Shown here one piece after another: positions 3,614 through 16,084 of a DNA stretch of 18,367 nt. Position 1 is the stretch's first letter. Each line of letters begins with the position of its first letter. A model generated the notes under the pieces. The model made no database searches. It was not told the origin of the DNA and saw nothing but the letters and a program-made list of their open reading frames with translations. A program made the position numbers and the translations under genes. Source of the stretch: a virus; UHGV virus genome UHGV-1667981; one strand, written 5' to 3'.

Positions 3614-3778
3614 AATACCCTCCAAATTCATATAGTTAGTGGGTTATTGCCCCTCAATGACACGAACTGTAACTCTGCCAAACGAACACATCCAGTGTTA
3701 TTTTTCGCTTTTTAATGAAATTTTTAATTTGCGTTGTTTTCTTGTTTTGGTGTATTTTATGGATGTGGAGGCTATAAT

Positions 3779-4090
3779 ATGTTTAACGTGATAACCCACC
3801 CTGCAGCACTGGATGAACTGCTTGAACTACCAGATGATTTGCGAGGTCGCATGGCCAGATTAATTGAGCGACTGGAGAAAGAAGGCAACAAACTGAAGAT
3901 GCCCCATAGCCGTGTAATAGGTGGAGGGCTTTTTGAACTACGAGTAGGGGATAAAAACATCGCAAGAACGCTGTACGCCTACGCGACTGGTAACGAAATT
4001 TATCTATTGCATGCATTTGTAAAAAAGACACAGAAAACACCGGTGAAGGCTATCGAAATCGCCAGAACTCGCCTGAAGGAGATGAACTGA
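3779..4090 (+). CDS. Type II toxin, RelE/ParE superfamily, HigB-like (Gp49-like)
   Basis: ORF 3734..4090(+); favoured start ATG 3779 with GGAGG SD 8 nt upstream. Motifs GGGLFELRV and LLHAFVKKTQKTP are recalled as typical of HigB/Gp49-like toxins. Toxin-first order, stop overlaps antitoxin start (TGATG). Confidence 0.8.
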   Translation: MFNVITHPAALDELLELPDDLRGRMARLIERLEKEGNKLKMPHSRVIGGGLFELRVGDKNIARTLYAYATGNEIYLLHAFVKKTQKTPVKAIEIARTRLKEMN

Positions 4091-4377
4091 TGAAAGCGAA
4101 AGGCATCCCGTTTAACGAAGTAAAAGAAAAACTCCTCAACACTCCAGAAGCCGTCAAAGGATATGAAGAGGCCGACAAAGAGCTGGAGATGGTCGAAATG
4201 TTATACGAAATGAGGGAAAGAGCAGGTTTAACGAAATCAGCTCTGGCTGAACGAATGGGGTTACGACCGTCAGCCATCAGCCGCCTGGAAAGCAATCCTT
4301 TAGGGGCAAGTATGAAAACTTTGGCTAAATATGCTCATGCCTGCGGCGCAGCCATCGATATTCGCGCTGTTTATTAA
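4090..4377 (+). CDS. HTH (XRE-family) antitoxin, HigA-like
   Basis: ORF 4090..4377(+), 95 aa. Helix-turn-helix segment LTKSALAERMGLRPSAISRLE. AAGGAG SD 8 nt upstream. Translationally coupled to the upstream toxin. Confidence 0.85.
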   Translation: MKAKGIPFNEVKEKLLNTPEAVKGYEEADKELEMVEMLYEMRERAGLTKSALAERMGLRPSAISRLESNPLGASMKTLAKYAHACGAAIDIRAVY

Positions 4378-4393
4378 TTAGACTCTTTTACTA

Positions 4394-4413
4394 CCCCGTC
4401 CAGAAGGGCGGGG
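4394..4413. other. GC-rich hairpin between convergent genes (8-bp stem with one G-U, AGAA loop); possible non-canonical terminator
   Basis: ccccgtcc-agaa-gggcgggg. No U-tract on either side, so not a canonical intrinsic terminator. Confidence 0.3.
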
Positions 4414-4419
4414 TGTGCA

Positions 4420-4623
4420 TCAATGATGTGAACGCTCAACAGCGATAGTTTTCTGACAATGCTGGGCAATCTCTCGCGACATGTTGATGAGTCGTGAAAC
4501 CTCACCAATATGTAGGCTGGCTTCTGGAGAAGCCAGGGTGACGCTAACCAGATCCAGAATGGCGTCAATATCTCTTAAATTTGAATCGAGTTGTTCAAGA
4601 GTTGATACGGCTGCTTCAGACAT
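4420..4623 (-). CDS. Small protein (67 aa) downstream of a LexA box; candidate SOS-inducible antirepressor
   Basis: ORF 4420..4623(-). A CTGT-N8-ACAG LexA box lies 37-56 bp upstream of the start and overlaps a candidate -10. Function is inferred from context only; no sequence family recognised. Confidence 0.5.
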   Translation of the reverse strand: MSEAAVSTLEQLDSNLRDIDAILDLVSVTLASPEASLHIGEVSRLINMSREIAQHCQKTIAVERSHH

Positions 4624-4659
4624 TAAATCTCATACCATTTAACTAAAAAAGGTTGTTTG

Positions 4660-4679
4660 TACTGTATAAAATTACAGGG
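4660..4679. promoter_or_regulatory. LexA (SOS) box tACTGTATAAAATTACAGgg
   Basis: Both CTGT and ACAG half-sites intact with an AT-rich 8-bp spacer; 15/20 matches to the TACTGTATATATATACAGTA consensus by eye. Overlaps a candidate promoter (TTGAGT-17-TACAGT on the minus strand) for the 4420..4623 gene. Confidence 0.6.
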
Positions 4680-4705
4680 TAAAACTCAAACTTTACGGTC
4701 AATTT

Positions 4706-4948
4706 TCAATGAATTAACTGCGTAAACTGCTGTGTGGCCCGATACTTATGCTCTCTCCCTATGCCACGATCAACTTTCTCAAGAAGTCCAGTACGGACAG
4801 CAGAATCAAGCATCCTTTTAACAATTCTGCTATTTAACCCAACATCAAAAGCAAGCATCGAAGCGAAAACAAACCCATCACCACCATCAGAAAAGCTCTT
4901 TTCGCTCCGTTTTCGTATCATTTCAAAAAGCAATGCCTTTTTATCCAT
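4706..4948 (-). CDS. Hypothetical small protein (80 aa), possibly DNA-binding
   Basis: ORF 4706..4948(-). GGAGGG SD 4 nt upstream of ATG, immediately preceded by the CGTGACCAGTCACG palindrome. DNA-binding role is a guess. Confidence 0.5.
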   Translation of the reverse strand: MDKKALLFEMIRKRSEKSFSDGGDGFVFASMLAFDVGLNSRIVKRMLDSAVRTGLLEKVDRGIGREHKYRATQQFTQLIH

Positions 4949-4956
4949 TTATCCCT

Positions 4957-4971
4957 CCGTGACCAGTCACG
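4957..4971. promoter_or_regulatory. Palindrome CCGTGAC-CA-GTCACG (copy 1 of 2); candidate regulator binding site
   Basis: 14-bp core CGTGACCAGTCACG; its reverse complement CGTGACTGGTCACG recurs at 14594..14607 inside a longer 20-bp palindrome. Sits directly upstream of the SD of the 4706..4948 gene. Confidence 0.35.
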
Positions 4972-5293
4972 CTTTGAGCGCAAGTTTCAGCCTCGTGGTT
5001 GTAAGGTGGCATGACCCTTCGCCATCAAAAATGCATTCTGAAACAGGCATTTTTTGACCACATCGTGGGCAAGTAGTAGATAGCTGCTTCTGCAGCTCCT
5101 TATAGTTTTTCCTGATCAACAAACCAATGACTTCGTTCTCCGAATATGGAACTCGCCCTGGTCTACGCAATACACAAATTTCCCCCAACATACGTAACTC
5201 GTCAGGTTCTAGAATCCAGTCCCGTCTTGATGTGCCTTCCTTCTTCAACCGTTCCCTGCGTCTCCTTTGCCGTTCTGCCGGTGTCAGCGCCAT
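4967..5293 (-). CDS. Hypothetical protein (108 aa) with Arg-rich N-terminus and CPRCG...C..H putative zinc-binding cluster
   Basis: ORF track 4967..5293(-); QRRRRERLKK then CPRCGQ...SECIFDGEGSCH. No confident family assignment. Confidence 0.5.
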   Translation of the reverse strand: MALTPAERQRRRRERLKKEGTSRRDWILEPDELRMLGEICVLRRPGRVPYSENEVIGLLIRKNYKELQKQLSTTCPRCGQKMPVSECIFDGEGSCHLTTTRLKLALKA

Positions 5294-5308
5294 AAATCCT
5301 CCTGAAAA

Positions 5309-5968
5309 TTACTTAACCCAATTAACTACACCGCCAGCGGCCACAACCGCCCTTTCACAGTCACGCTCATATCTCAAAGGTTGAAATACACCATCAATAA
5401 AATATTTATCTCCACCAAACGTTGCAGGAAGTGAAACAGAAAACTGAACATGACCATCCGGAGTTACCGGAGAGTTGCCAGCCTCATACGCGACCCTTAT
5501 CCAGTGCATAAACATTTCAGTACTTACACATCCACAATCAACATCAATTTTGTCATGCTGCTGTTCCAGCCATTGCTCAAAAGTTAACTTGTAAGTTTGG
5601 CTTACAGGTTTGGCTTCCAGTTCTGCTACGCGCTGTTTTGCAGCATCCAGTTCAATCGACAATTTTTCCAACTGCTCTTTATGCTTCTTGTATTCCTGAT
5701 ATGCGTGCCAGGACTGACCTTTGCGCACACTATCAGTAATATCAGTAATCTGTTCTGGTGTTAGCGTAGTCAGTGGCTGTGCTGGGAAAATCAGCACTTT
5801 CCCGGAATCCCAATCAAAACCAGCGTGAATTGACTGAACCTCAACTGAGGGTGTTGAACCAATGCTGCCAGGCGAATGAATAACGATTGTTACATCCATA
5901 TCGCGACGATGGCTGTGGTTGTTGGACAAAATACGATTCACCAACTCAGAAAATTTGGAAAATTTCAT
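5309..5968 (-). CDS. Hypothetical protein (219 aa) with central coiled-coil segment
   Basis: ORF track 5309..5968(-); KEQLEKLSIELDAAKQRVAELEA heptad-like segment. Overlaps the upstream gene's stop (5965..5968), suggesting translational coupling. Confidence 0.55.
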   Translation of the reverse strand: MKFSKFSELVNRILSNNHSHRRDMDVTIVIHSPGSIGSTPSVEVQSIHAGFDWDSGKVLIFPAQPLTTLTPEQITDITDSVRKGQSWHAYQEYKKHKEQLEKLSIELDAAKQRVAELEAKPVSQTYKLTFEQWLEQQHDKIDVDCGCVSTEMFMHWIRVAYEAGNSPVTPDGHVQFSVSLPATFGGDKYFIDGVFQPLRYERDCERAVVAAGGVVNWVK

Positions 5969-6255
5969 GCTGATTCCCCTTTCTCTGCTCTCTCCTGTCG
6001 GAACATCACTATCATCAGGTCGCCTTTTGTCGCTATCTTGGCTGTTGTGCCTGGCTCAATGCGGCTAAGTTCAAATGCGTCATAGAACGCCTCTAACACT
6101 TTCTGGCGTCTTTCCTGTTTGCGGTGCTTTCCCCACTGCTTTAGAAAAACAGAGGCCGCCCACTTCCCCGCACTGAACATGATGTAAAACCAACCGAGAA
6201 GTGCCAGACCGATATTTAGGGCCGTATCGATCGTTATCGTGGTGTCGATATTCAC
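5965..6255 (-). CDS. Hypothetical small membrane protein (96 aa, one N-terminal TM helix)
   Basis: ORF track 5965..6255(-); hydrophobic LNIGLALLGWFYIMF followed by a charged tail. Start overlaps the upstream gene's stop. Confidence 0.45.
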   Translation of the reverse strand: MNIDTTITIDTALNIGLALLGWFYIMFSAGKWAASVFLKQWGKHRKQERRQKVLEAFYDAFELSRIEPGTTAKIATKGDLMIVMFRQERAEKGESA

Positions 6256-6674
6256 TACGCCACCTCCTGTAAATTTCCCTGATAAAAAGCCAGCACACGC
6301 TGCATAACTTCACTTTTCCGGCAATCGTGACAAATCATGTTCAAGCGCCTGTCGTAACGACGTATTTCTCCGTCAGGTAATGACCAGATAAGGTCTGGAT
6401 CAACCACTACCGATTTCTTCGGCTTTACTCTTGATAGTTTTTTACGGGCGTTTTGCCAGTCCTTGCGTGCTTGTGCAGACAGAAATATCCCGGAGCCAGA
6501 GATATACAAATCACCACTGGCAGCAAGCTCTCTTGATAAACGACTAACAGCACACCGGCTAATACCAGTTTCATCCGCAAGTTGCCTAACCGTTCCTCGT
6601 CCATTCAGGCGCACGAATTCCACAATTTGTTTATTCAGTTCTTCCCTCTGTTCTGGTGTAAAAGCCTTTGCCAT
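6255..6674 (-). CDS. Hypothetical DNA-binding protein (139 aa) with N-terminal HTH and CHDC motif
   Basis: ORF track 6255..6674(-); HTH-like segment TVRQLADETGISRCAVSRLSRELA. Start overlaps the exonuclease gene stop at 6674. Confidence 0.55.
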   Translation of the reverse strand: MAKAFTPEQREELNKQIVEFVRLNGRGTVRQLADETGISRCAVSRLSRELAASGDLYISGSGIFLSAQARKDWQNARKKLSRVKPKKSVVVDPDLIWSLPDGEIRRYDRRLNMICHDCRKSEVMQRVLAFYQGNLQEVA

Positions 6675-7273
6675 TACGATTCTCCTTGCCCTTTTACAAG
6701 ACGGGAGAAAATTGCGGATACATATTTAGCCTGATGAATAGCATCAGCCAGGGCATTGTGTCGTTCGCCATCAAATGGCATATCTTTTTTAGGATTAAAA
6801 CCAATAAACTGACCAAGATTAACGATTGTTCGAACATCCTGATCATTAAAATATTCCCATGGACAGGCTAAGCCAACGCGCTCATAAGCACCGCGTAAAA
6901 TTACATTATCGAACGTTGCTCCATTTCCCCATACTTTCAACTTTTTTAAATTACATGCATGGCAAGTAATAAAGTGTGATAATTCAAAAAGTGCATCATT
7001 AATATCAAGGGCATCATTAGTACAAATAGCGGCTCTGGCTTCCTTGCTCTGTTTCAACCACCATAAAATGGTATCACCATCGGCGATACCACCATTCAAC
7101 ATCGAGCTTCTGAGATTCACTGGCACATAAAAAGTAGGACCTAATTCCTCACTTTCTGGAGAAAAAAACACTGCCCCGATAGAAACAATTGGAGCACATG
7201 TGTTAGTACCCATTGTTTCAAGGTCAATCATTACATCAGACCGTTTCCTGTCGTAAATAATCTGATTAGTCAC
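6674..7273 (-). CDS. DEDDh-type 3'-5' exonuclease (DnaQ-like fold)
   Basis: ORF 6674..7273(-), 199 aa; GTG start with GAGGAG SD 8 nt upstream. Exo I-like motif MIDLETMG (D-x-E) and C-terminal H-x4-D (ERHNALADAIH). Confidence 0.7.
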   Translation of the reverse strand: MTNQIIYDRKRSDVMIDLETMGTNTCAPIVSIGAVFFSPESEELGPTFYVPVNLRSSMLNGGIADGDTILWWLKQSKEARAAICTNDALDINDALFELSHFITCHACNLKKLKVWGNGATFDNVILRGAYERVGLACPWEYFNDQDVRTIVNLGQFIGFNPKKDMPFDGERHNALADAIHQAKYVSAIFSRLVKGQGES

Positions 7274-7296
7274 GAATAATTCTCCTCAACGTTTAT

Positions 7297-7524
7297 CTAT
7301 ACCCAAATTTTCTGTTGATATGTTCTGGATGGTTTTGGCGTTCTTTCTGATTCAGGTAAATGAACATAAACACAATATCCATCACCTAAAAAATCAGAAC
7401 GAACAACCAGAACTTTCTTACCACGCCGCCGATAAGTATCTGAAAGACGCTCTGCTTCATCATGCGTCATCGGCCCCTGCTTAAATGGCGTTATTTTCAT
7501 TTTCTTGTGCGACCACGGTCGCAC
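7297..7524 (-). CDS. Hypothetical small protein; start codon ambiguous (7524, 7500 or 7470)
   Basis: ORF track 7297..7524(-). The longest version overlaps the 3' end of the 7481..7801 ORF and the palindrome at 7507..7524; a shorter start at 7470 (MTHDEAERL, preceded by AGGGG) avoids the overlap. Confidence 0.3.
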   Translation of the reverse strand: MRPWSHKKMKITPFKQGPMTHDEAERLSDTYRRRGKKVLVVRSDFLGDGYCVYVHLPESERTPKPSRTYQQKIWV

Positions 7525-7801
7525 CCTCTCTGATTTCCAAGTAACGCTTAATCCAAAGATTTTCTATATGCTTATTACCTGGCTGATTTGATAAATACCA
7601 ATCGGCAATTACAGACTGCTTATTACTATCTGGTCGTGTCCTGTAACCACAAGTTGGACACCAGATAACATATTCATTTCTTACCCCCGAATACCTTAAT
7701 TCTGGCTTCGACGGTTTCCTGAACATAACTTGTTTACAAAGGCAGAATGGCACTTCCTGCCCTATGGCGTTTGATGATTTCACTGCGCTTCTCCGCCGCA
7801 T
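7481..7801 (-). CDS. Hypothetical Cys-rich protein (106 aa), possible zinc ribbon
   Basis: ORF track 7481..7801(-); FCLC...WCPTCGY cysteine pairs. C-terminal codons GCG ACC GTG GTC GCA CAA (ATVVAQ) are the 18-bp palindrome. Overlaps the upstream gene by 68 nt at its 5' end, so the start is uncertain. Confidence 0.4.
   Translation of the reverse strand: MRRRSAVKSSNAIGQEVPFCLCKQVMFRKPSKPELRYSGVRNEYVIWCPTCGYRTRPDSNKQSVIADWYLSNQPGNKHIENLWIKRYLEIREGATVVAQENENNAI
7507..7524. repeat. 18-bp palindrome GTGCGACC-AC-GGTCGCAC (copy 2 of 3, opposite orientation)
   Basis: Exact reverse complement of the 18-mer at 3128..3145. Lies at the overlap junction of two minus-strand ORFs. Confidence 0.5.
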
Positions 7802-8444
7802 TTAATAATGCAGTTCGATTTAAGCTCAGACATCGCGACTTAATTAAAAGCCAGCGTTCTTTATAATCTTGTCTCCAGCTATCAATAGATATATTCAGTA
7901 GAAAACTCAGATGCCTGTCCTGTTCTCTCTCATCAACTGCCTCAGCACACGTAAGTTCTGATTTAACCTGCTGTGCCGCGTAATAAATCAATTTCCGCAT
8001 GGCTTTTTTCGTGGAGGCCTTCATTTTTTTAAAGCCGCCCCCCGAATGAGCAACCAGAAAATCAAGCCATAACCACTGACAAACAATCACATCATTGTTG
8101 TAATCAGGCTTGCATCCGTAGCAATAATAAAGCCAGGCTGATTCCTCGTTATTCAACTGACCAATAGCCCTGCGCCAGCTGGCGCTCTGAAAATCAATAT
8201 CAGTGAGCAACATTGATGATTGTTTAAATGTTTTCCCCTGATGGAATCTAACCGGCTCAGCAGGAACGGACACTTCGTATGAGTTATCATCCCCCACACT
8301 GATTGACCGGACTGGTTTATAGTTAAACCGTCCTGACCTACCGAGACGCATCTGCTCAAGCTGGACCTCCAGAATGCCACCCTGGCGATAATGAACATCA
8401 GCCAATGCCGTAGAGACGCAGCTGCGTATATACTCAAGCTCCAC
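7734..8444 (-). CDS. Hypothetical protein (236 aa); candidate Q-like late regulator by position downstream of cro
   Basis: ORF 7734..8444(-), GTG start preceded by AAGGAG. Several Cys (YYCYGCKPDY). Function is inferred only from synteny with the N15-type immB order (cB, cro, Q) as recalled; no motif-level support. Confidence 0.5.
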   Translation of the reverse strand: MELEYIRSCVSTALADVHYRQGGILEVQLEQMRLGRSGRFNYKPVRSISVGDDNSYEVSVPAEPVRFHQGKTFKQSSMLLTDIDFQSASWRRAIGQLNNEESAWLYYCYGCKPDYNNDVIVCQWLWLDFLVAHSGGGFKKMKASTKKAMRKLIYYAAQQVKSELTCAEAVDEREQDRHLSFLLNISIDSWRQDYKERWLLIKSRCLSLNRTALLNAAEKRSEIIKRHRAGSAILPL

Positions 8445-8655
8445 GCTTACTACTCTCCTTAATCGACTGCTTTACCCGCCGAGTTGTAAAGTCACTCTTC
8501 AGCTTATAAGCAGTACGAACTTCAATATCGCTTTGCCGCAATGAAGGAATCTCTCCAGCGGTTAACCATTGGTAAACAGCTCCGGGTGTTACACCTACCC
8601 CTGCCGCTGCTTTTTCTACACTGCCAAAATGGCGAATAAGTTCTTCTGGTTTCAT
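8434..8655 (-). CDS. Cro-like HTH regulator (divergent from the repressor)
   Basis: ORF 8434..8682(-); first ATG at 8655 gives MKPEELIRHFGSVEKAAAGVGVTPGAVYQWL, an HTH-like segment. Divergent from the CI-like gene across an operator-containing intergenic region. Confidence 0.7.
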   Translation of the reverse strand: MKPEELIRHFGSVEKAAAGVGVTPGAVYQWLTAGEIPSLRQSDIEVRTAYKLKSDFTTRRVKQSIKESSKRGA

Positions 8656-8682
8656 GTTGTTATTATAAACAATAAACAACAA

Positions 8683-8724
8683 TTAAAGCCAGCTATAACA
8701 AATAAATTTTATAGCCAGCTATAA
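8683..8724. promoter_or_regulatory. Two operator-like sites in the cro/repressor intergenic region: TTAAAGCCAGCTATAA (8683..8698) and palindromic TTATAGC-CA-GCTATAA (8709..8724)
   Basis: AGCCAGCTATAA repeated directly at 8687 and 8713 (26-bp spacing); the second copy has 7-bp inverted arms. Located between divergent HTH regulator genes, the classic position for operators. Confidence 0.55.
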
Positions 8725-8746
8725 GAAGATCATTTATGATTACAGT

Positions 8747-9343
8747 ATGAAAACACGAGGCGAACGACTGAAAGCACGCCGTTTAGAGATGAAGCTGACG
8801 TTGCGAGAAGTTGCTGAGGCTGTCGATATCTCTATAGCAGGCGTCCAAAACTTAGAACGTGGCGACGTAATGCCGTCACTGGAGATAGGTATTGCCCTGG
8901 CTAAGTGCTTACGCAAGCCAGTGCATTGGGTGCTATATGGGACAGAATATGACCCTGATCGCATTCCTGTTATTGGCACAACTGAAAGTGGGCCAGATGA
9001 AGAGTGGAAGCCGGGACAGGTTCCAAATACTGAGCGATTCCTGCCATTCATCAGCCAGCGCAATACTGTGTATGCGTTAACTATCAGCAATCTTACGCAG
9101 GGAAACTATCAGCCAGGCGATTTTCTCCTGGTCGATTCTGCGCTGGAACTGGTCCCCGGCGAGGATGTTCTGGTTCGTGATACTGCAGGAAATATCACTA
9201 TCCAGCGCCTGGCCCGTTTTGATGATGAAAATTACTATCTGGATGGAACAAACTCACAACGCGCCATCTTCAGGAAAAGCGATCTTGAATTTGTTCACCA
9301 AATAGTCGGAACGATCAAATCATTCATGGTTGAGGGTAGATGA
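8747..9343 (+). CDS. CI/CB-like prophage repressor: N-terminal XRE-type HTH plus C-terminal LexA/S24-like domain
   Basis: ORF 8747..9343(+), 198 aa. HTH region LTLREVAEAVDISIAGVQNLERG; C-terminal PGDFLLVD...GEDVLVRD resembles the S24 fold. No obvious Ser in a G-x-S-M context, so autocleavage may be absent. Confidence 0.85.
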   Translation: MKTRGERLKARRLEMKLTLREVAEAVDISIAGVQNLERGDVMPSLEIGIALAKCLRKPVHWVLYGTEYDPDRIPVIGTTESGPDEEWKPGQVPNTERFLPFISQRNTVYALTISNLTQGNYQPGDFLLVDSALELVPGEDVLVRDTAGNITIQRLARFDDENYYLDGTNSQRAIFRKSDLEFVHQIVGTIKSFMVEGR

Positions 9344-9587: not shown

Positions 9588-12500
9588 ATGACATTAAACG
9601 ATTTCTATGCGGATCGCTTTGGCAGCGATCCGTTCTCGCTAATTGAAGCAGCACGGGATGAACTAACCGAGCTGGCACAGATGGCTGGTATCAACTGGCC
9701 TGCCTGTTCCGACAACATCCAACTCAACCCTCGCGGGGGTGTTGAGCGTTACTCTTCATACAATAAAACATCTCCAGAAGCTCTCGAGAAGAGCCTCAAA
9801 GGACGCGTAGAAATTTACTCCCGGCTGGAACACAGCAAAGGGATTGATTATCCGTTCATTAACTTCGTCCATAAAGGCAGCGATGCTGGCTCATGGAGCG
9901 GTTTCTCCTTCCTGTTTTCTGAATATCGCCGTGAGCAACAGCGGAATAATGCGACCGTGGTCGCACAACCGGAAGAAGAACGGGCAAGAATAGAACGTCA
10001 GGCCGAAGCACGTCGTCGCCGTGAAGAACAAAAACGAATTAATGACCTGAAAAACAACCAAATGGACCATGAACGTTTGCTGGGATGGCTGGCATTTCAC
10101 AGCGCGTGGGAACATGCTCCTGCAGAAGACGGCTCGTGGCCATATGCGATTAAAAAAGGTATTCGTGACGTTTTTAATTCGTGTGATGTGCGTCGCGTGA
10201 CCAGTCACGACAGCGCAAAATGGAGCAGGGGGCCAACCACGTATATGGCTATCCCTCTGGCTCACCTGGACGGTCGTTACGATGGTCGTATTGTGGGTTG
10301 GCAGCGAATCGACAAACAAGGTGGAAAATACCAGACCAGCGCCGTAACCAGCGGCGATTTCGTCGGTGCCTGCTTTGTTATCGGTGAGCTAAAAGGGGCG
10401 CAAAACATCGCTGTTACAGAAGGTTTTGCTACTGGTGCATCCATCTGGCTTGCCACGAAAAAAGATAAACGCTTTGACGCTGTGGTTGTCGCTGTATCCG
10501 CTAACAACATGGTTCATGTTGTGGAACAACTGGTAAACATGTACCCGGCGGCAAAAATCACCTGCGCACTGGATAATGACAGGAAATCAGCTACAGAAGG
10601 AAAAGGGAATACCGGCCTGCGGACTGGCTATGAAATCTTATCGAAATTCAACGATGTCCGCTGCGTCTATCCAACTTTTGAAGACGATCCGCAAATGGAG
10701 TGCAGTGACTTCAACGACCTGCACAAACTACGTGGACTTCGTGAAACAGCACGTCAACTGTTTGCAACTGCAAACCGCCTGAAAACTGGCACTGATTTGC
10801 TATCTCTGACGCTCAACCGCCTGAAGACAATTAAGCGGGATAACCGTCGTACTTTTGCCAAAGAGCTGCTGAGAGCGGTGGATATTGGCATGCTAACCTG
10901 CCCGGTTCCTAACAGTCCGTCAGATTTATTTAACATGTTCTGCATCGTTCTGCGTGAAATGGGACTGGAAAATATCTATCGCGCTACGGTAAAAGACCAC
11001 ATTGCCCGTCGCCTGAATAAAAAGTGCCGTATTGCCCAGGCTCCGCGCTCTTTCAGCGAACGCATAACTGATCCCAATAAACGCCCTCAACATATCACCT
11101 ATAAGCGTTTTGAAACTTCGGTAATGACCGATGATGTCCTGAAGTACGTGCAATCACTACAGGGGATAGTCATCGTCCGTGCTGGTATGGGTTCCGGCAA
11201 ATCTACTGGATTGTTACGACCGTTAATGCATAGCTCAGAACGTGGTATCTCTGTTGCTCACCGTGTCTCCCTTATTGGTGGCCTGTGGGAAATGATGACA
11301 GAAGGAAAAGGTGTAAAAGCCGATATCCTGCACTATCAGGACCCTGGCTATCAGGAAATGGCTCCATACGCCAGTAAACTGACCATCTGCATAAACTCGA
11401 TTGTTAAAAACTGCTGGCAACCGTTGATGCGCCAGCACGACTATTTTGGCTTTGACGAGGCCACGCAAGGGCTACGTGCCGTTCTTTCCGGTCGGGCTAT
11501 GGAAAACCCGGTTGCTGTATTCAATACGCTAATTGACGCGCTGGCCAGAACGGAACAACACCCAATCATGGTGGATGCTGATGCGAACGATCTACTGGTT
11601 GACCTGGCTGAACTGGCTATGAAACGCCGTGAAGAACTAGGTTTACCGGCATGGCTGCAGATCCACGTAATTGAATTACCTGTTGATGTTTGCAACCGCG
11701 AAACAGGTGAGCCAATCCGGGTTTTTTATACAGAAAAAGATCGCATCATGACCGAGGTGGTGAAAGCTGTATCGGATGGCGAAAAAATCATGTTGGCCAC
11801 CGACAGCTCCACCTTTGCAGAAGATGTGACAGCCACCCTGAGAATGCATTTTCCTGGTAAGAAATTTCTGTGTGTAAACCAGAAAAACAAACCAGAGCCA
11901 GAAGTTGAAGCATTTACCAATCAACCGAAAAAGATGGTCAAAAAATACGACGGCCTGATTTATAGCCCGTCTATTTCATCCGGCGTGTCGATTGAGCAAA
12001 AACATTTTGACCGTCATTTCGGCATGTTCTGTGGTGAAGTTGTACCCAGCGACGCAGTGCAAATGCTACGCCGCGACCGTACAGCAAAAGAATTTATTAT
12101 CGGCTTTGATAAAGCTCGTGCAAAACGTGAAACTGACCCGCAAAAAATAGAACGAGCATTCGCCCAGGCATTGCTTGCTACCGCAGGTATGAACGGTGAA
12201 CTTACGGATGTCGTTTTCGATGGCGACCGTATATCAATGGGGGTGGCCAATACCGACTTTACCAGGATGAAAATTAAAGCAGCCGCAATTGAAGCGACTG
12301 CGCGTAACGACTACGCCAGCAACATGATCTGCATCATGCACAGCGACGGTTATAAGGTATCACCGCTGGCCACCGATTATGCTGCGAATGATATCGGTAA
12401 AGATCTGCGTAAAGAAGCGCGGGATATTGTGTGGGAACAGACACTGGATCTGCACCTCAATACAGAAACTCCACAAGAATCAGAGCGTGAAGAACTGCTA

Positions 12501-13583
12501 AAAAAACGCGCGCTGACGCTTGAAGAACAGGCAAAACTTGTCCGCTGGGATATTGAAAACGAACTGAAACTACCGGTTGAAGAAGGCACGCTGAAATTCT
12601 ATTTCGATGGTGCTCGAGACAAAGTTCGCCGCTATGAAACAATGCTTTTAGATGAGGTAACAGCTCGTCGTTACGACCGGGAAGAAGCAGCCATCAATTT
12701 TACCTACGCATACCGTCAGGCGGGACAGTGGCAATATTTTGTAGTGACCGCGATGACTCGCGAGCAGGCTGATGATGTCTTTAAAACTAAATTCCCTGGA
12801 ATAATCGATCACAAGGTAAAAGCTACTCCTACTGTTGAAGTCGGGGCGCGCGGTTTCTATGCGCTTAAATCAGCAACTCTCCGGCAGTACTTTATCGACT
12901 GCGGTATCAACCCTGAAACTATGACCGGCGAGGCGACTCAGGAGCGTCTCAAATTCGCTCGAGATAACCTCATGACAGCCGAACGCCGTGACCTGTTGAA
13001 TAACGTTCTGCACATTGGTGGTTTTATGACGCCAAAAGGGAAGCCTAAAGTGCCGGAAGCGTTGTTTAAAAACATTTGCGACTCTCTTGGCCTTAAAACA
13101 GGTAAACGTCGCGGCAGAGACGGCGATAAGCGTCCAACCTTGCGTTTTGTTGAGCCCGAATCAGCGGCATTTATGCTGGATATTCTTGTTCAGCGTCAGA
13201 AAGATGGCCTAACCCTAAAAACGCGTAAAGCCGAGAAGACAGCCATCGAAATGGATCGCGATTTGGATCTCAATATATATATGGATGATAAAACGCGATC
13301 CACAAACGAGCAGGTTCAAAACGCCCCTCATTCAGTAATTTCTGAGGCTTTGGCCGTATTGCCGGTGGCTGTTCCTGAGTCCTGGGCGATGAGTGCGCTT
13401 TCCGGTGAGGAGCTGGCCACTATGTCATCATGGTCATCAACCAGCATAGCTATGACGTTTGCATCTCTGTACCTCACAGAGTTCATGGATCACTTGTCCA
13501 GCAATGAACTGCGGCGGTTACGAGAATACATTACCGGGAATAGCTCATGCAGCTACGAAGAGCAGGGCGCTTTCTATGGGTAA
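9588..13583 (+). CDS. repA: Multifunctional replication protein, primase-helicase (N15 RepA-type, 1331 aa)
   Basis: ORF 9588..13583(+). TOPRIM-like primase signature (AVTEGFATGASIW ... CALDNDRKS) in the N-terminal third; Walker A RAGMGSGKSTG and Walker B-like FGFDEATQG in the middle. Size and architecture match N15 RepA (about 1300 aa) as recalled. Confidence 0.9.
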   Translation: MTLNDFYADRFGSDPFSLIEAARDELTELAQMAGINWPACSDNIQLNPRGGVERYSSYNKTSPEALEKSLKGRVEIYSRLEHSKGIDYPFINFVHKGSDAGSWSGFSFLFSEYRREQQRNNATVVAQPEEERARIERQAEARRRREEQKRINDLKNNQMDHERLLGWLAFHSAWEHAPAEDGSWPYAIKKGIRDVFNSCDVRRVTSHDSAKWSRGPTTYMAIPLAHLDGRYDGRIVGWQRIDKQGGKYQTSAVTSGDFVGACFVIGELKGAQNIAVTEGFATGASIWLATKKDKRFDAVVVAVSANNMVHVVEQLVNMYPAAKITCALDNDRKSATEGKGNTGLRTGYEILSKFNDVRCVYPTFEDDPQMECSDFNDLHKLRGLRETARQLFATANRLKTGTDLLSLTLNRLKTIKRDNRRTFAKELLRAVDIGMLTCPVPNSPSDLFNMFCIVLREMGLENIYRATVKDHIARRLNKKCRIAQAPRSFSERITDPNKRPQHITYKRFETSVMTDDVLKYVQSLQGIVIVRAGMGSGKSTGLLRPLMHSSERGISVAHRVSLIGGLWEMMTEGKGVKADILHYQDPGYQEMAPYASKLTICINSIVKNCWQPLMRQHDYFGFDEATQGLRAVLSGRAMENPVAVFNTLIDALARTEQHPIMVDADANDLLVDLAELAMKRREELGLPAWLQIHVIELPVDVCNRETGEPIRVFYTEKDRIMTEVVKAVSDGEKIMLATDSSTFAEDVTATLRMHFPGKKFLCVNQKNKPEPEVEAFTNQPKKMVKKYDGLIYSPSISSGVSIEQKHFDRHFGMFCGEVVPSDAVQMLRRDRTAKEFIIGFDKARAKRETDPQKIERAFAQALLATAGMNGELTDVVFDGDRISMGVANTDFTRMKIKAAAIEATARNDYASNMICIMHSDGYKVSPLATDYAANDIGKDLRKEARDIVWEQTLDLHLNTETPQESEREELLKKRALTLEEQAKLVRWDIENELKLPVEEGTLKFYFDGARDKVRRYETMLLDEVTARRYDREEAAINFTYAYRQAGQWQYFVVTAMTREQADDVFKTKFPGIIDHKVKATPTVEVGARGFYALKSATLRQYFIDCGINPETMTGEATQERLKFARDNLMTAERRDLLNNVLHIGGFMTPKGKPKVPEALFKNICDSLGLKTGKRRGRDGDKRPTLRFVEPESAAFMLDILVQRQKDGLTLKTRKAEKTAIEMDRDLDLNIYMDDKTRSTNEQVQNAPHSVISEALAVLPVAVPESWAMSALSGEELATMSSWSSTSIAMTFASLYLTEFMDHLSSNELRRLREYITGNSSCSYEEQGAFYG
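9950..9965. repeat. Palindrome TGCGACC-GT-GGTCGCA (copy 3 of 3), inside repA coding sequence
   Basis: Shares the 16-bp core gcgaccgtggtcgcac (9951..9966) with the 18-mer at 3128..3145; 7-bp inverted arms here, because the flanking base is A rather than G. Encodes ATVVAQ in the repA frame, the same peptide the copy at 7507..7524 encodes in the 7481..7801 ORF. Confidence 0.5.
13252..13302. other. Candidate internal replication origin element within the 3' part of repA: 9-bp inverted repeat flanking an (AT)n tract with three GATC sites
   Basis: tggatcgcg (13252..13260) and cgcgatcca (13294..13302) flank atttggatctcaatatatatatggatgataaaa. GATC at 13254, 13266 and 13297. Confidence 0.35.
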
Positions 13584-14637: not shown

Positions 14638-14746
14638 TGTGCGTCGTTTTGACGGTAAAGTTACTTCGCTGCGGTAAATCCCGTAGCCGGGACTCTCAAC
14701 CCCGAAATCCGAACGACGCACAACACGCGCCAGCGTGTTTTTTTGT
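14638..14746 (+). ncRNA. Candidate structured small RNA or leader (c4/CA-RNA-like) ending in an intrinsic terminator
   Basis: Long-range stem gtgcgtcgtt (14640..14649) pairs with aacgacgcac (14712..14721), enclosing about 60 nt. Followed by terminator hairpin aacacgc-gcca-gcgtgtt plus T-run (14722..14746). No credible coding ORF here. Identity as a regulatory RNA is inferred from position and structure only. Confidence 0.35.
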
Positions 14747-14844
14747 GTGTATGAGCCTGCGCATATCCGAATTATGGTGGCTCAGGTGGGGCAGCCGAAA
14801 GGCTGGCCGGTGTCGTTTGGGCCGGTGTTGAGAACCCCGCTTGG

Positions 14845-14890
14845 GCTACCACCCCATAGAGATTCTCAACTCTGGTGGTAGCACTGTTTT
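14845..14890 (+). terminator. Attenuator-like hairpin (9-bp stem GCTACCACC/GGTGGTAGC, 20-nt loop) followed by TTTT, just upstream of the antirepressor operon SD
   Basis: Loop contains TTCTCAAC, which is complementary to GTTGAGAA at 14827..14834 and is also repeated (CTCTCAAC) at 14693..14700. T-run starts 4 nt after the stem. Confidence 0.35.
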
Positions 14891-15075: not shown

Positions 15076-15305
15076 ATCAGGTAAAAATGAACACTGTTGG
15101 CCTGCTGGAATCGTTGGATGAACGTCTGGCTCAGGTCTATGCGCTTGTGTCATCCGCCCATCGTACAGTCTCCAGCTGTGAGGCGTCGATTTATCTCTCA
15201 GAAGCCGGGAAGCTCCTTCAAATTGCGTGTGAGTTGACACACAAAGCACAGGGGTATTCAGCATCTCTCTCGTCGCAATTGCAGCACAATAAGGAGGCCA
15301 AATGA
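15072..15305 (+). CDS. Hypothetical protein (77 aa), second gene of the antirepressor operon
   Basis: ORF track 15072..15305(+); GAGGTGG SD upstream; ATGA overlaps at both ends indicate translational coupling. Confidence 0.55.
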   Translation: MNQVKMNTVGLLESLDERLAQVYALVSSAHRTVSSCEASIYLSEAGKLLQIACELTHKAQGYSASLSSQLQHNKEAK

Positions 15306-16084
15306 GCGCGTTAGCTGTATTTTCGTTTCAGGAAGAGCATCAGGTTCGTGTAGTGATGATTAACGGCGATCCGTGGTTTGTAGCGGCTGATGTTTGTAAT
15401 GCCATCGGGATTATCAATCATCGTGATGCTGTTGGTAAGTTGGATGAAGACGAAAAGGGGGTCGGTTCAACAGACACCCTTGGAGGTAAACAGGGAGTGA
15501 CAATTATTAACGAATCCGGCCTCTATACCCTAATCCTCCGCTGCCGTGACGCGGTGAAGCAAGGCACAACAGCTTGGCGGTTTCGCAAATGGGTAACGAA
15601 CGAAGTCTTGCCCTCTATTCGCAAAAATGGAGAGTACGTTTACGTCGAGCCAGAGCCAATGCGAGCAGCAGAGCCGTTGAACTGGAGGCAGAAAGAGTAT
15701 CTGCGAGGGCTGATTAACGATATTGCACAAAGTTTTCAATACCGAAATGCCTGGATTAGCGGTGTATGGTTGGCTTTGCGTCGGGCGTGTCGTAATCCAT
15801 CCCCGAACCCCATAACTGTTGATGATTTGCCAGCAATTACGGCAGAACTGCGCCGGATTTTGACGGCTGCTGAGTCGGCATTGGGGAACATGCGCACGTA
15901 TGAACGAGAGTTGTTGCGTGATGTTGTTCGTGGTGGTAGGCGGAGTATGTCGTGTGGTGATTTGCCCATCACCGATATCAACTCTGATCTGGAAAAGGCG
16001 TTACCCGCGCATTTTGAACTGGCAGTTCAAAAACTTGAGCAGTTGTCCGCGCAGCTAAAGCCAGCAGAAATCACCAATAAATAG
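15302..16084 (+). CDS. Prophage antirepressor with Bro-N/AntA-type N-terminal domain
   Basis: ORF 15302..16084(+), 260 aa; AAGGAGG SD. N-terminal motifs (GDPWFVAADVCNAIGI, LGGKQGVTIINESGLYTLILRC, WRFRKWVTNEVLPSIRKNGEY) match the Bro-N/AntA antirepressor domain as recalled. Confidence 0.8.
   Translation: MSALAVFSFQEEHQVRVVMINGDPWFVAADVCNAIGIINHRDAVGKLDEDEKGVGSTDTLGGKQGVTIINESGLYTLILRCRDAVKQGTTAWRFRKWVTNEVLPSIRKNGEYVYVEPEPMRAAEPLNWRQKEYLRGLINDIAQSFQYRNAWISGVWLALRRACRNPSPNPITVDDLPAITAELRRILTAAESALGNMRTYERELLRDVVRGGRRSMSCGDLPITDINSDLEKALPAHFELAVQKLEQLSAQLKPAEITNK

Follow-up and report, generated by a model that had tools for sequence, protein, structure and literature searches.

Introduction

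In the linear phage-plasmids N15 and phiKO2 the region between the antiterminator gene Q and gene 46 (genes 41-45.1 in N15, genes 39-44 in phiKO2) holds a DEDDh exonuclease gene followed by small genes of unknown function. It is preceded by cro, Q, a Lar-like gene and a small gene here called p75, and is followed by gp46, gp47 and the gp48/49 toxin-antitoxin pair. The same operon position, with the same flanks and likewise an exonuclease gene followed by small genes, was analysed in UHGV virus genome UHGV-1667981, an 18,367-nucleotide (nt) stretch of DNA referred to below as the window. An initial annotation, made from the sequence alone, had singled out the minus-strand genes at positions 4706-7273 as a translationally coupled operon that could encode recombination or replication accessories, or an uncharacterised anti-defence or exclusion module. 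The reading preferred here, to which a probability of about 0.72 is assigned, is that positions 4706-7273 form the middle of the rightward early (cro-Q) operon in an N15-like linear phage-plasmid and constitute an ordinary mosaic accessory segment.

Other described systems bear on the individual genes. The exonuclease, EXO, shares the DEDDh fold family with phage T4 DexA and with EcD, an Escherichia coli homologue of DexA. EcD digests T4 DNA containing 5-hydroxymethylcytosine (5hmC), spares unmodified double-stranded DNA and, when plasmid-borne, protects cells from T4; DexA serves in the scavenging of host DNA and in intron homing and not in proofreading (PMC12153337). The exo-xis/ea and nin genes of lambdoid phages (Ea22, Ren, and the Stx Ea22 variants with DUF551) are small, non-essential early-operon genes that are mosaic at the level of domains, as are the genes described here; the lambdoid counterparts belong to the leftward pL operon, whereas the window genes lie in the rightward cro-Q operon. 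In Ea22 variants a shared N-terminal part and coiled coil are combined with portable C-terminal domains (PMC10834534).

Identity of the element and composition of the region

Judged by its gene content, the window is an N15-like linear phage-plasmid. Like the records of YDC107_1 (Escherichia phage, Ravinvirus) and PhiR46_1, it encodes a protelomerase, a 1331-amino acid (aa) RepA, a cB-type repressor, cro, Q, a methylase and lysis genes, and the Gp49/HTH toxin-antitoxin pair is also common to all three. Positions 4600-8700 matched YDC107_1 at 99.1% identity over the full length and PhiR46_1 at 98.4%. The genes have already been deposited, with annotation, in these near-identical phage genomes.

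All six genes reported in the initial annotation were present, encoding proteins of 199, 139, 96, 219, 108 and 80 aa that are called EXO, DUF977, DUF4752, CC (coiled-coil protein), CYS (Cys-cluster protein) and p80 here (Table 1). Their Pfam or PHROG E-values ranged from 1e-28 to 3e-81, and because of these strong family matches all six were accepted as real genes. Recognisable families are not limited to the exonuclease, contrary to the initial annotation: matches were obtained to PF06163 (2e-28), PF15944 (1e-38), phrog_6026 and phrog_368, phrog_536 and phrog_13995. No usable matches were found in NCBIfam.

Table 1. Features of the early region of the window and of its surroundings
Feature	Position	Strand	Size and remarks
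Gp49-family (PF05973) toxin and HTH_3 antitoxin	3734-4377	+	Convergent with the operon; 85% identical to N15 gp49/gp48
p67, small acidic protein	4420-4623	-	67 aa; phrog_6301, 3.7e-35; 54% identical to an unannotated N15 open reading frame (ORF)
p80	4706-4948	-	80 aa
CYS	4967-5293	-	108 aa
CC	5309-5968	-	219 aa
DUF4752	5965-6255	-	96 aa
DUF977	6255-6674	-	139 aa
EXO	6674-7273	-	199 aa
p75, small conserved backbone protein	7297-7524	-	phrog_1212, 1.8e-25; upstream border of the slot
Lar-like zinc-ribbon protein	7481-7801	-	ORF overlaps the end of Q; phrog_6795, 1.5e-45
Q-type antiterminator	7734-8444	-	PF06323, 9e-83; 66% identical to N15 and phiKO2 Q
cro-like lytic repressor	8434-8682, start probably ATG 8655	-	First gene of the operon; PF14549 (P22_Cro), 2.5e-22
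Divergent control region	8683-8746	-	Between cB-like repressor gene and cro; putative P_R and repressor operators
cB-like repressor gene	8747-9343	+	
isrK RNA	14668-14743	+	Rfam, 54.9 bits
C4 antisense RNA	14770-14856	+	Rfam, 71.8 bits; adjoins isrK
Bro-N antirepressor gene	15302-16084		Downstream of the isrK/C4 pair

All operon proteins were compared with N15, phiKO2 and PY54 by tblastn, which divided them into backbone and cassette. CYS is a homologue of N15 gp46 (80% identity) and phiKO2 gp45 (81%), and p80 of N15 gp47 (68%) and phiKO2 gp46 (61%); p80 matched phrog_13995 at 2.8e-47. Homologues of EXO, DUF977, DUF4752 and CC were detected in neither N15 nor phiKO2, and PY54 had only EXO (gene 51, 61% identical). 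By these comparisons the region mixes two kinds of genes, a lineage-wide backbone and a replaceable cassette at a recombination hotspot. Besides CYS and p80, the backbone includes p75 and the Lar-like gene upstream. The cassette consists of EXO, DUF977, DUF4752 and CC (5309-7273) and lies between p75 and the gp46-like gene CYS, which borders it downstream. The six genes had been treated as one group; CYS and p80 fall outside the swapped part.

Comparison of the slot across N15-like loci

Fifty loci were retrieved from viral contigs using the gp46-like gene as anchor, and the p75-gp46 slot could be delimited in 45 of them. The slot measured 1110-3885 bp and held 29 gene architectures. Its first gene encoded a DEDDh exonuclease in all 45 loci, of the RNase_T type (PF00929) in 29, the type that includes N15 gp41 and phiKO2 gp39, and of the Rv2179c/DexA type, as in the window, in 16. 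Sequence similarity between the two types of slot exonuclease was not detectable. This pattern suggests replacement of the exonuclease by an analogue, the activity rather than the gene set being what would be retained or selected.

Around the exonuclease the gene content differed from clade to clade. In the clade of the window, EXO-DUF977, with or without DUF4752, was followed by one to five variable genes, as it was in annotated plasmids; the N15/phiKO2-type clade had none of the four cassette genes. Among 5426 E. coli genomes only 17 contained the full cassette at a coverage of at least 80%. The full gene set was thus confined to a near-identical clade and its genes were dispersed elsewhere, each being found singly in early operons of lambdoid, P2-like, P22-like and P1-like prophages.

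By the criterion that the initial annotation had itself set, the interpretation of the genes as a coherent module fails, since they are not kept together as one set: four of the six are missing from N15 and phiKO2, and the slot shows 29 architectures in 45 loci. A part in recombination or replication, as the initial annotation had considered, is still plausible for the exonuclease. The close packing of the genes is genuine; a dedicated multi-protein system is not supported, and the genes are instead shuffled accessory early genes. The cassette would have been assembled from accessory genes of this kind circulating among temperate enterobacterial phages.

The exonuclease

Profile matches and motifs place EXO among the DEDDh 3'-5' exonucleases, in the Rv2179c-like/DexA family; its gene is the first of the variable cassette. 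Residues 13-188 matched positions 2-176 of the 177 in PF16473 (4.4e-68, 228.9 bits; cut-off 27), and the protein matched phrog_255, which also contains T4 dexA, at 3e-81. The DEDDh residues already proposed were located at D17, E19, D122, H172 and D177; the DxE pair and the central Asp are invariant alignment columns, and the C-terminal Hx4D motif was misaligned against DexA by MAFFT. The closest solved structure by sequence was PDB 8kel (phmmer E=1e-7), whose sequence is identical to that of T4 DexA. EXO and DexA are 29% identical.

The start of EXO differs by source, being GTG 7273 (199 aa) in GenBank and in metagenome collections and ATG 7231 (185 aa) by PGAP. The former is preceded by a strong Shine-Dalgarno site; the latter agrees with the N-termini of most homologues.

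EXO most likely would trim DNA 3' ends or degrade DNA during lytic growth, and its purpose may be support of recombination or replication, nucleotide scavenging, or destruction of competing DNA. A role in lytic growth would be likelier than protection of the lysogen because the gene appears to lie in a repressor-controlled lytic operon, a setting in a temperate element that is unlike that of DexA or EcD. The competing proposal is that EXO is an HREX-type nuclease like EcD that selectively degrades 5hmC-containing (T-even) DNA, the cassette serving to exclude superinfecting or competing phages. It draws on the homology to DexA and on the reported digestion of 5hmC T4 DNA and protection from T4 by EcD. 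In addition, EXO is short and without the extra loops of DexA, as is described for EcD (PMC12153337), the likeness to EcD being taken from that description and from an N-terminus read from cloning primers (MIDTET in EcD, MIDLET in EXO), and, in an alignment that is uncertain at 29% identity, the equivalent of the acidic residue D169 of DexA is kept as D164, an invariant position.

In that uncertain alignment, however, EXO has Phe at the position of W152 of DexA, which is needed for 5hmC recognition. Relatives have Ser, Arg or Trp there, and a Trp that lies three residues further upstream is conserved. The tetramer-interface region around S87/D90 could not be aligned with confidence, MAFFT placing a gap where HMMER aligned an Asp. 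EcD (HAK9828821.1) was absent from the 120 closest homologues of EXO, all of them at least 59% identical, and from all fetched loci; its 23-mer primer sequence had no match, and a 20-mer gave one chance match in the viral contigs and one in a metagenome-assembled genome of Acetatifactor. PADLOC returned only a generic DEDDh match (E=0.0017), and in a repressor-controlled operon EXO should be off in the very lysogen that needs protection. On this balance an EcD-like exclusion function is regarded as unlikely.

Relatives of EXO were present in 1873 of the 5426 complete E. coli genomes and also in 727 phage records, and every inspected case lay in a prophage early operon. In ST64B the gene adjoins xis, in mEpX2 it stands between Rad52/SSB and Abc2 genes, and a KpLE1-like prophage has it together with yfdPQR and DUF551. 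It lies between the cox and primase genes in one P2-like prophage and ahead of abc2 in one P22-like prophage. The study that proposed DexA homologues as bacterial defence (PMC12153337) does not use the word 'prophage'; all inspected E. coli and Salmonella members were in prophage early operons. Separately, early-left 'exonuclease' proteins of about 810 aa encoded next to xis in Qin-type prophages of E. coli (L172, 11597-14068; L173, 13034-14397) were seen to carry a C-terminal Rv2179c-type domain (compare phrog_2082, matched at 638-820 of 823), and one of the two genes is a pseudogene.

The N15 and phiKO2 slot exonucleases differ from EXO in being of the RNase_T type, that of N15 being fused to Lar. 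N15 gene 41 (12161-13075) encodes this RNase_T exonuclease-Lar fusion; the Lar-like ORF of the window is free-standing, two genes upstream of EXO. A functional link between the Lar-like protein and the exonuclease is possible.

The genes DUF977, DUF4752 and CC

The DUF977 protein matched PF06163 at 1.9e-28 (99.6 bits; cut-off 22.1), residues 1-136 corresponding to positions 1-134 of the 134-position profile, and phrog_142 at 1.3e-41; residues 12-54 gave weak helix-turn-helix (HTH) matches of the HTH_24, IclR and MarR types. It is labelled 'Ren-like' in PHROG and GenBank. This label was rejected, as the only stretch matching lambda Ren was a 20-aa C-terminal motif (residues 112-131 against Ren 73-92, 50% identity) and the shared phrog_142 rests on remote clustering. 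The likeness to Ren is one of position: in Qin-type chromosomal prophages DUF977 follows cro, YdaT and replication genes, where lambda has ren. The protein may be a winged-HTH DNA binder occupying the slot after the replication genes that lambda gives to Ren. Relatives at 71-75% identity were without the other cassette genes in 67 of 80 loci.

The DUF4752 protein matched PF15944 (1.3e-38, 131.3 bits; cut-off 27) over residues 7-89, corresponding to positions 1-83 of 84. As first described, it has a single putative transmembrane segment, hydropathy showing one hydrophobic stretch (residues 12-30) followed by a basic tail. In 31 loci DUF4752 was directly followed by a gene with the N-terminal domain of CC, the first 110-120 residues being 93-97% identical to CC and the remainder divergent; a match to CC was present in 64 of 80 loci, P1-like phage-plasmids included. 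P1-like phages (Punavirus) and phage-plasmids of about 100 kb carry the same DUF4752 gene and then an overlapping-start gene with this domain, with 92% nucleotide identity to window positions 5616-6256 (DUF4752 and the CC N-terminus). They differ from the window in the C-terminal half of the second gene and in all neighbours, and neither EXO nor DUF977 is adjacent. The DUF4752 protein may be a small membrane-anchored protein that travels with the CC N-terminal domain, the only pairing kept across types of element.

CC matched phrog_6026 and phrog_368 and has 1684 homologues, for which the NCBI name is 'DUF551 domain-containing'. Its predicted layout starts with an alpha/beta region at the N-terminus (about residues 1-65) and continues with a long central helix (71-119), a middle region and, after residue 172, a swapped 47-aa C-terminal module. 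In the model, whose mean predicted local distance difference test (pLDDT) is 46, beta-rich parts flank the helix. Residues 1-183 were 95% identical to P0220, which continues with PF04448, whereas CC has a different 47-residue end. The label 'Ea22' given by PHROG and GenBank was rejected: at E<=0.1 no match of CC to Ead_Ea22 or to DUF551 (PF04448) was obtained in Pfam, Ead_Ea22 was not matched in NCBIfam, and the BLASTP comparison with lambda Ea22 gave E=0.37. The predicted design, an N-terminal region, a coiled coil and a portable C-terminal module, would nevertheless be like that of the Ea22 variants, and CC may be an oligomeric coiled-coil protein of an Ea22-like kind whose C-terminal module can be swapped.

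DUF977, DUF4752 and CC would accordingly be individually mobile, non-essential modulators. PY54 tolerated an insertion in its RdgC-like ORF46, a neighbouring gene (PMC10612081). PDB searches with DUF977, CC, DUF4752, p80 and a CYS profile returned nothing significant, the best match being the RpoN C-terminal HTH at E=0.15.

It has also been considered that EXO, DUF977 and DUF4752, and perhaps CC as well, make up a single functional system in which, for instance, a nuclease effector, a DNA-binding sensor and a membrane partner act together in exclusion, anti-defence or plasmid maintenance. Overlapping stop and start codons do tie these three genes to one another. In the clade of the window EXO was followed by DUF977 in 16 of 16 loci and then by DUF4752 in 14, and this block was kept while the downstream genes varied. 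The clade is, however, near-clonal (Q 97-99% identical), so that the linkage may reflect recent ancestry, and the genes were never together outside it, DUF977 being alone in the 67 of 80 loci noted above. DUF4752 pairs with the CC N-terminal domain and not with EXO, the neighbours of EXO differ by phage type, and PY54 has EXO without DUF977 and DUF4752. Searches of the gene set against PADLOC-DB v2 models gave marginal matches only (the generic DEDDh match, AriA at 0.0029 and CasR at 0.0044), so no member matched a defence-system model beyond noise and the anti-defence or exclusion module of the initial annotation found no backing. A single dedicated system is considered very improbable. The overlaps would instead reflect the compact coupling usual in phage early operons and no shared mechanism.

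Operon layout and control signals

Reading the minus strand directly confirmed that the stops and starts overlap or nearly abut. The EXO/DUF977 and DUF977/DUF4752 junctions are TAATG and TAGTG, each with a 1-nt overlap, the DUF4752/CC junction is ATGA, with a 4-nt overlap, and gaps of 15 nt and 18 nt separate CC from CYS and CYS from p80. A Shine-Dalgarno-like motif precedes each of the six starts (GAGGAG, AAGGAG, AGGAGG, AAGGGGA, AGGAGG and GGAGGG, respectively). By layout, that is by overlapping or abutting codons and ribosome-binding sites, the genes qualify as a translationally coupled operon, coupling itself being predicted from this layout. Plus-strand ORFs inside the region (e.g. 4734-5057) were taken as antisense artefacts, the minus-strand genes having strong family support.

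The operon had been described as ending in the exonuclease; on the coding strand EXO is the first of the six genes. Nor is the block a separate operon. Upstream of it p75, the Lar-like gene, Q and cro lie contiguously on the same strand, with a largest gap of 23 nt. Because the block continues this string of genes without a gap from cro (8682), the limits 4706-7273 are arbitrary and divide a longer operon.

The true start of the operon is inferred to be the divergent control region upstream of cro, which would contain the early promoter (P_R) and its operators. The palindrome TTATAGCCAGCTATAA occurs there in two copies (8683-8698 and 8709-8724) together with a TATAAT box, and CB operator sites are annotated at the same position in the N15 record. 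These signals, with the identity to YDC107_1, agree with the initial placement of the genes in an early-region operon of an N15-like element. A consensus scan of the minus strand from 8700 to 4400 revealed no convincing promoter or terminator; it yielded 6 promoter-like sites where chance alone would give 11.4. With Rfam, no RNA families were found within the region.

One repressor-controlled transcript would start upstream of cro and run on through p80 or p67, in the order cro, Q, Lar-like gene, p75, EXO, DUF977, DUF4752, CC, gp46-like and gp47-like genes. It would end near a modest hairpin (about 4391-4416; deltaG -14.6, z -2.1) between p67 and the convergent antitoxin gene. The operon genes should then be silent in the lysogen and expressed upon induction or infection. 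The possibility that the genes beyond Q are Q-dependent late genes, as are those downstream of lambda Q, was rejected. The records of N15 and phiKO2 show a putative late promoter dependent on Q, standing before the methylase gene, and a terminator, both downstream of gp51, and there is no gap after Q.

Backbone and neighbouring genes

By tblastn, cro was 87% identical to its N15 counterpart and 85% to that of phiKO2. The Lar-like ORF has counterparts, annotated or not, in N15 (79% identity) and phiKO2 (72%); its match to PF14354 (3.6e-4) was under the Pfam cut-off. p75 was about 52% identical in N15 and phiKO2, and in lambdoid prophages it also occurs 2-6 kb downstream of DUF977. The N15 record (NC_001901) is without annotation for three conserved ORFs, at 11654-11971 (Lar-like), 11931-12152 (p75) and 15620-15808 (p67), which were 79%, 53% and 54% identical to those of the window.

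CYS matched phrog_536 at 5.6e-32; no independent support was found for the label 'transcriptional regulator' of that family. The protein has a basic N-terminal helix and, in line with its first description as a Cys-cluster protein, five Cys (C40, C75, C78, C87 and C95) that are invariant in the homologue alignment. Homologues numbered only 27 in a collection of 5.8 billion proteins and were 108-113 aa long except for fragments. p80 is possibly a small winged-helix protein, all Pfam matches of the winged-HTH type being below threshold.

p67 is probably the last gene before the convergent toxin-antitoxin pair. The 82-nt spacer ahead of it holds a weak promoter-like sequence (TTGAGT-17-TACAGT). 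p67 matched the anti-repressor family phrog_10889 weakly (4.5e-8), and PY54 carries antA at the equivalent end of its operon. The toxin-antitoxin pair is conserved in the backbone, as are p67 and gp50; the toxin matched the PADLOC model NsnC at 3.7e-7. Elsewhere in the window, the isrK/C4 pair upstream of the Bro-N antirepressor gene is a secondary immunity region of the P1/N15 immC type.

Discussion

The comparison of the slot argues for an ordinary mosaic segment within the cro-Q operon, and several points weigh against that reading. The clade of the window keeps EXO-DUF977 throughout and EXO-DUF977-DUF4752 nearly so, with overlapping codons, as a functional module would. The single-transcript model derives from missing gaps and signals in a crude scan, and cro and q have been called 'the only cistrons' of the N15/phiKO2 operon (PMC4488713), so that a terminator or promoter beyond Q may have escaped recognition. 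The roles offered for DUF977, DUF4752, CC, gp46 and gp47 lie at the level of proposals. Structures were predicted with AlphaFold2 for two members, CC and CYS, and the models were poor (CC, pLDDT 46 from a 28-sequence alignment; CYS, pLDDT 54 from 19 sequences) and allow conclusions only at the level of secondary structure. PF16473, the Pfam family of EXO, is named after an exoribonuclease, and the choice of DNA over RNA, or of modified over unmodified nucleic acid, as its substrate is a prediction.

For the exonuclease at the head of the slot, a role as replication accessory peculiar to linear phage-plasmids with hairpin ends has also been considered: it might proofread for the host polymerase recruited by RepA or process telomere or cos ends, the other genes being passengers. 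This idea fits the DEDDh gene that opens the slot in 45 of 45 loci despite the exchange of family, and the DnaQ-like RNase_T domains of N15 and phiKO2. It is considered very improbable, given that the Rv2179c type is also common among lambdoid, P2-like and P22-like prophages, which replicate as circles, and so is not specific to linear elements, that EXO is not the first slot gene in PY54, and that DexA, the closest characterised relative, acts in scavenging and intron homing.

With the region read as a mosaic early segment, the discovery value is small. The genes belong to existing Pfam and PHROG families, and mosaicism is the textbook pattern for accessory early regions of temperate phages. 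Only the DEDDh exonuclease is mildly notable, being kept by position with its family exchanged and possibly linked to DexA and EcD. It is a rather unlikely extension of this point that the DEDDh function of the slot, apparently kept through the exchange, is carried out here by an EcD/HREX-like enzyme that discriminates modified foreign DNA. Were it true, EXO would be a weapon against co-infecting T-even-like phages, deployed from the early operon of a temperate element, and the 'bacterial' HREX defence of 2025 would be a widespread prophage early-gene function.

The occurrence of DexA-family genes in the early operons of the inspected E. coli prophages gives context to that recent claim of bacterial defence. 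For the N15-like phage-plasmids themselves, the p75-gp46 slot is a defined cargo hotspot, and it could serve in the engineering of N15-based linear vectors.

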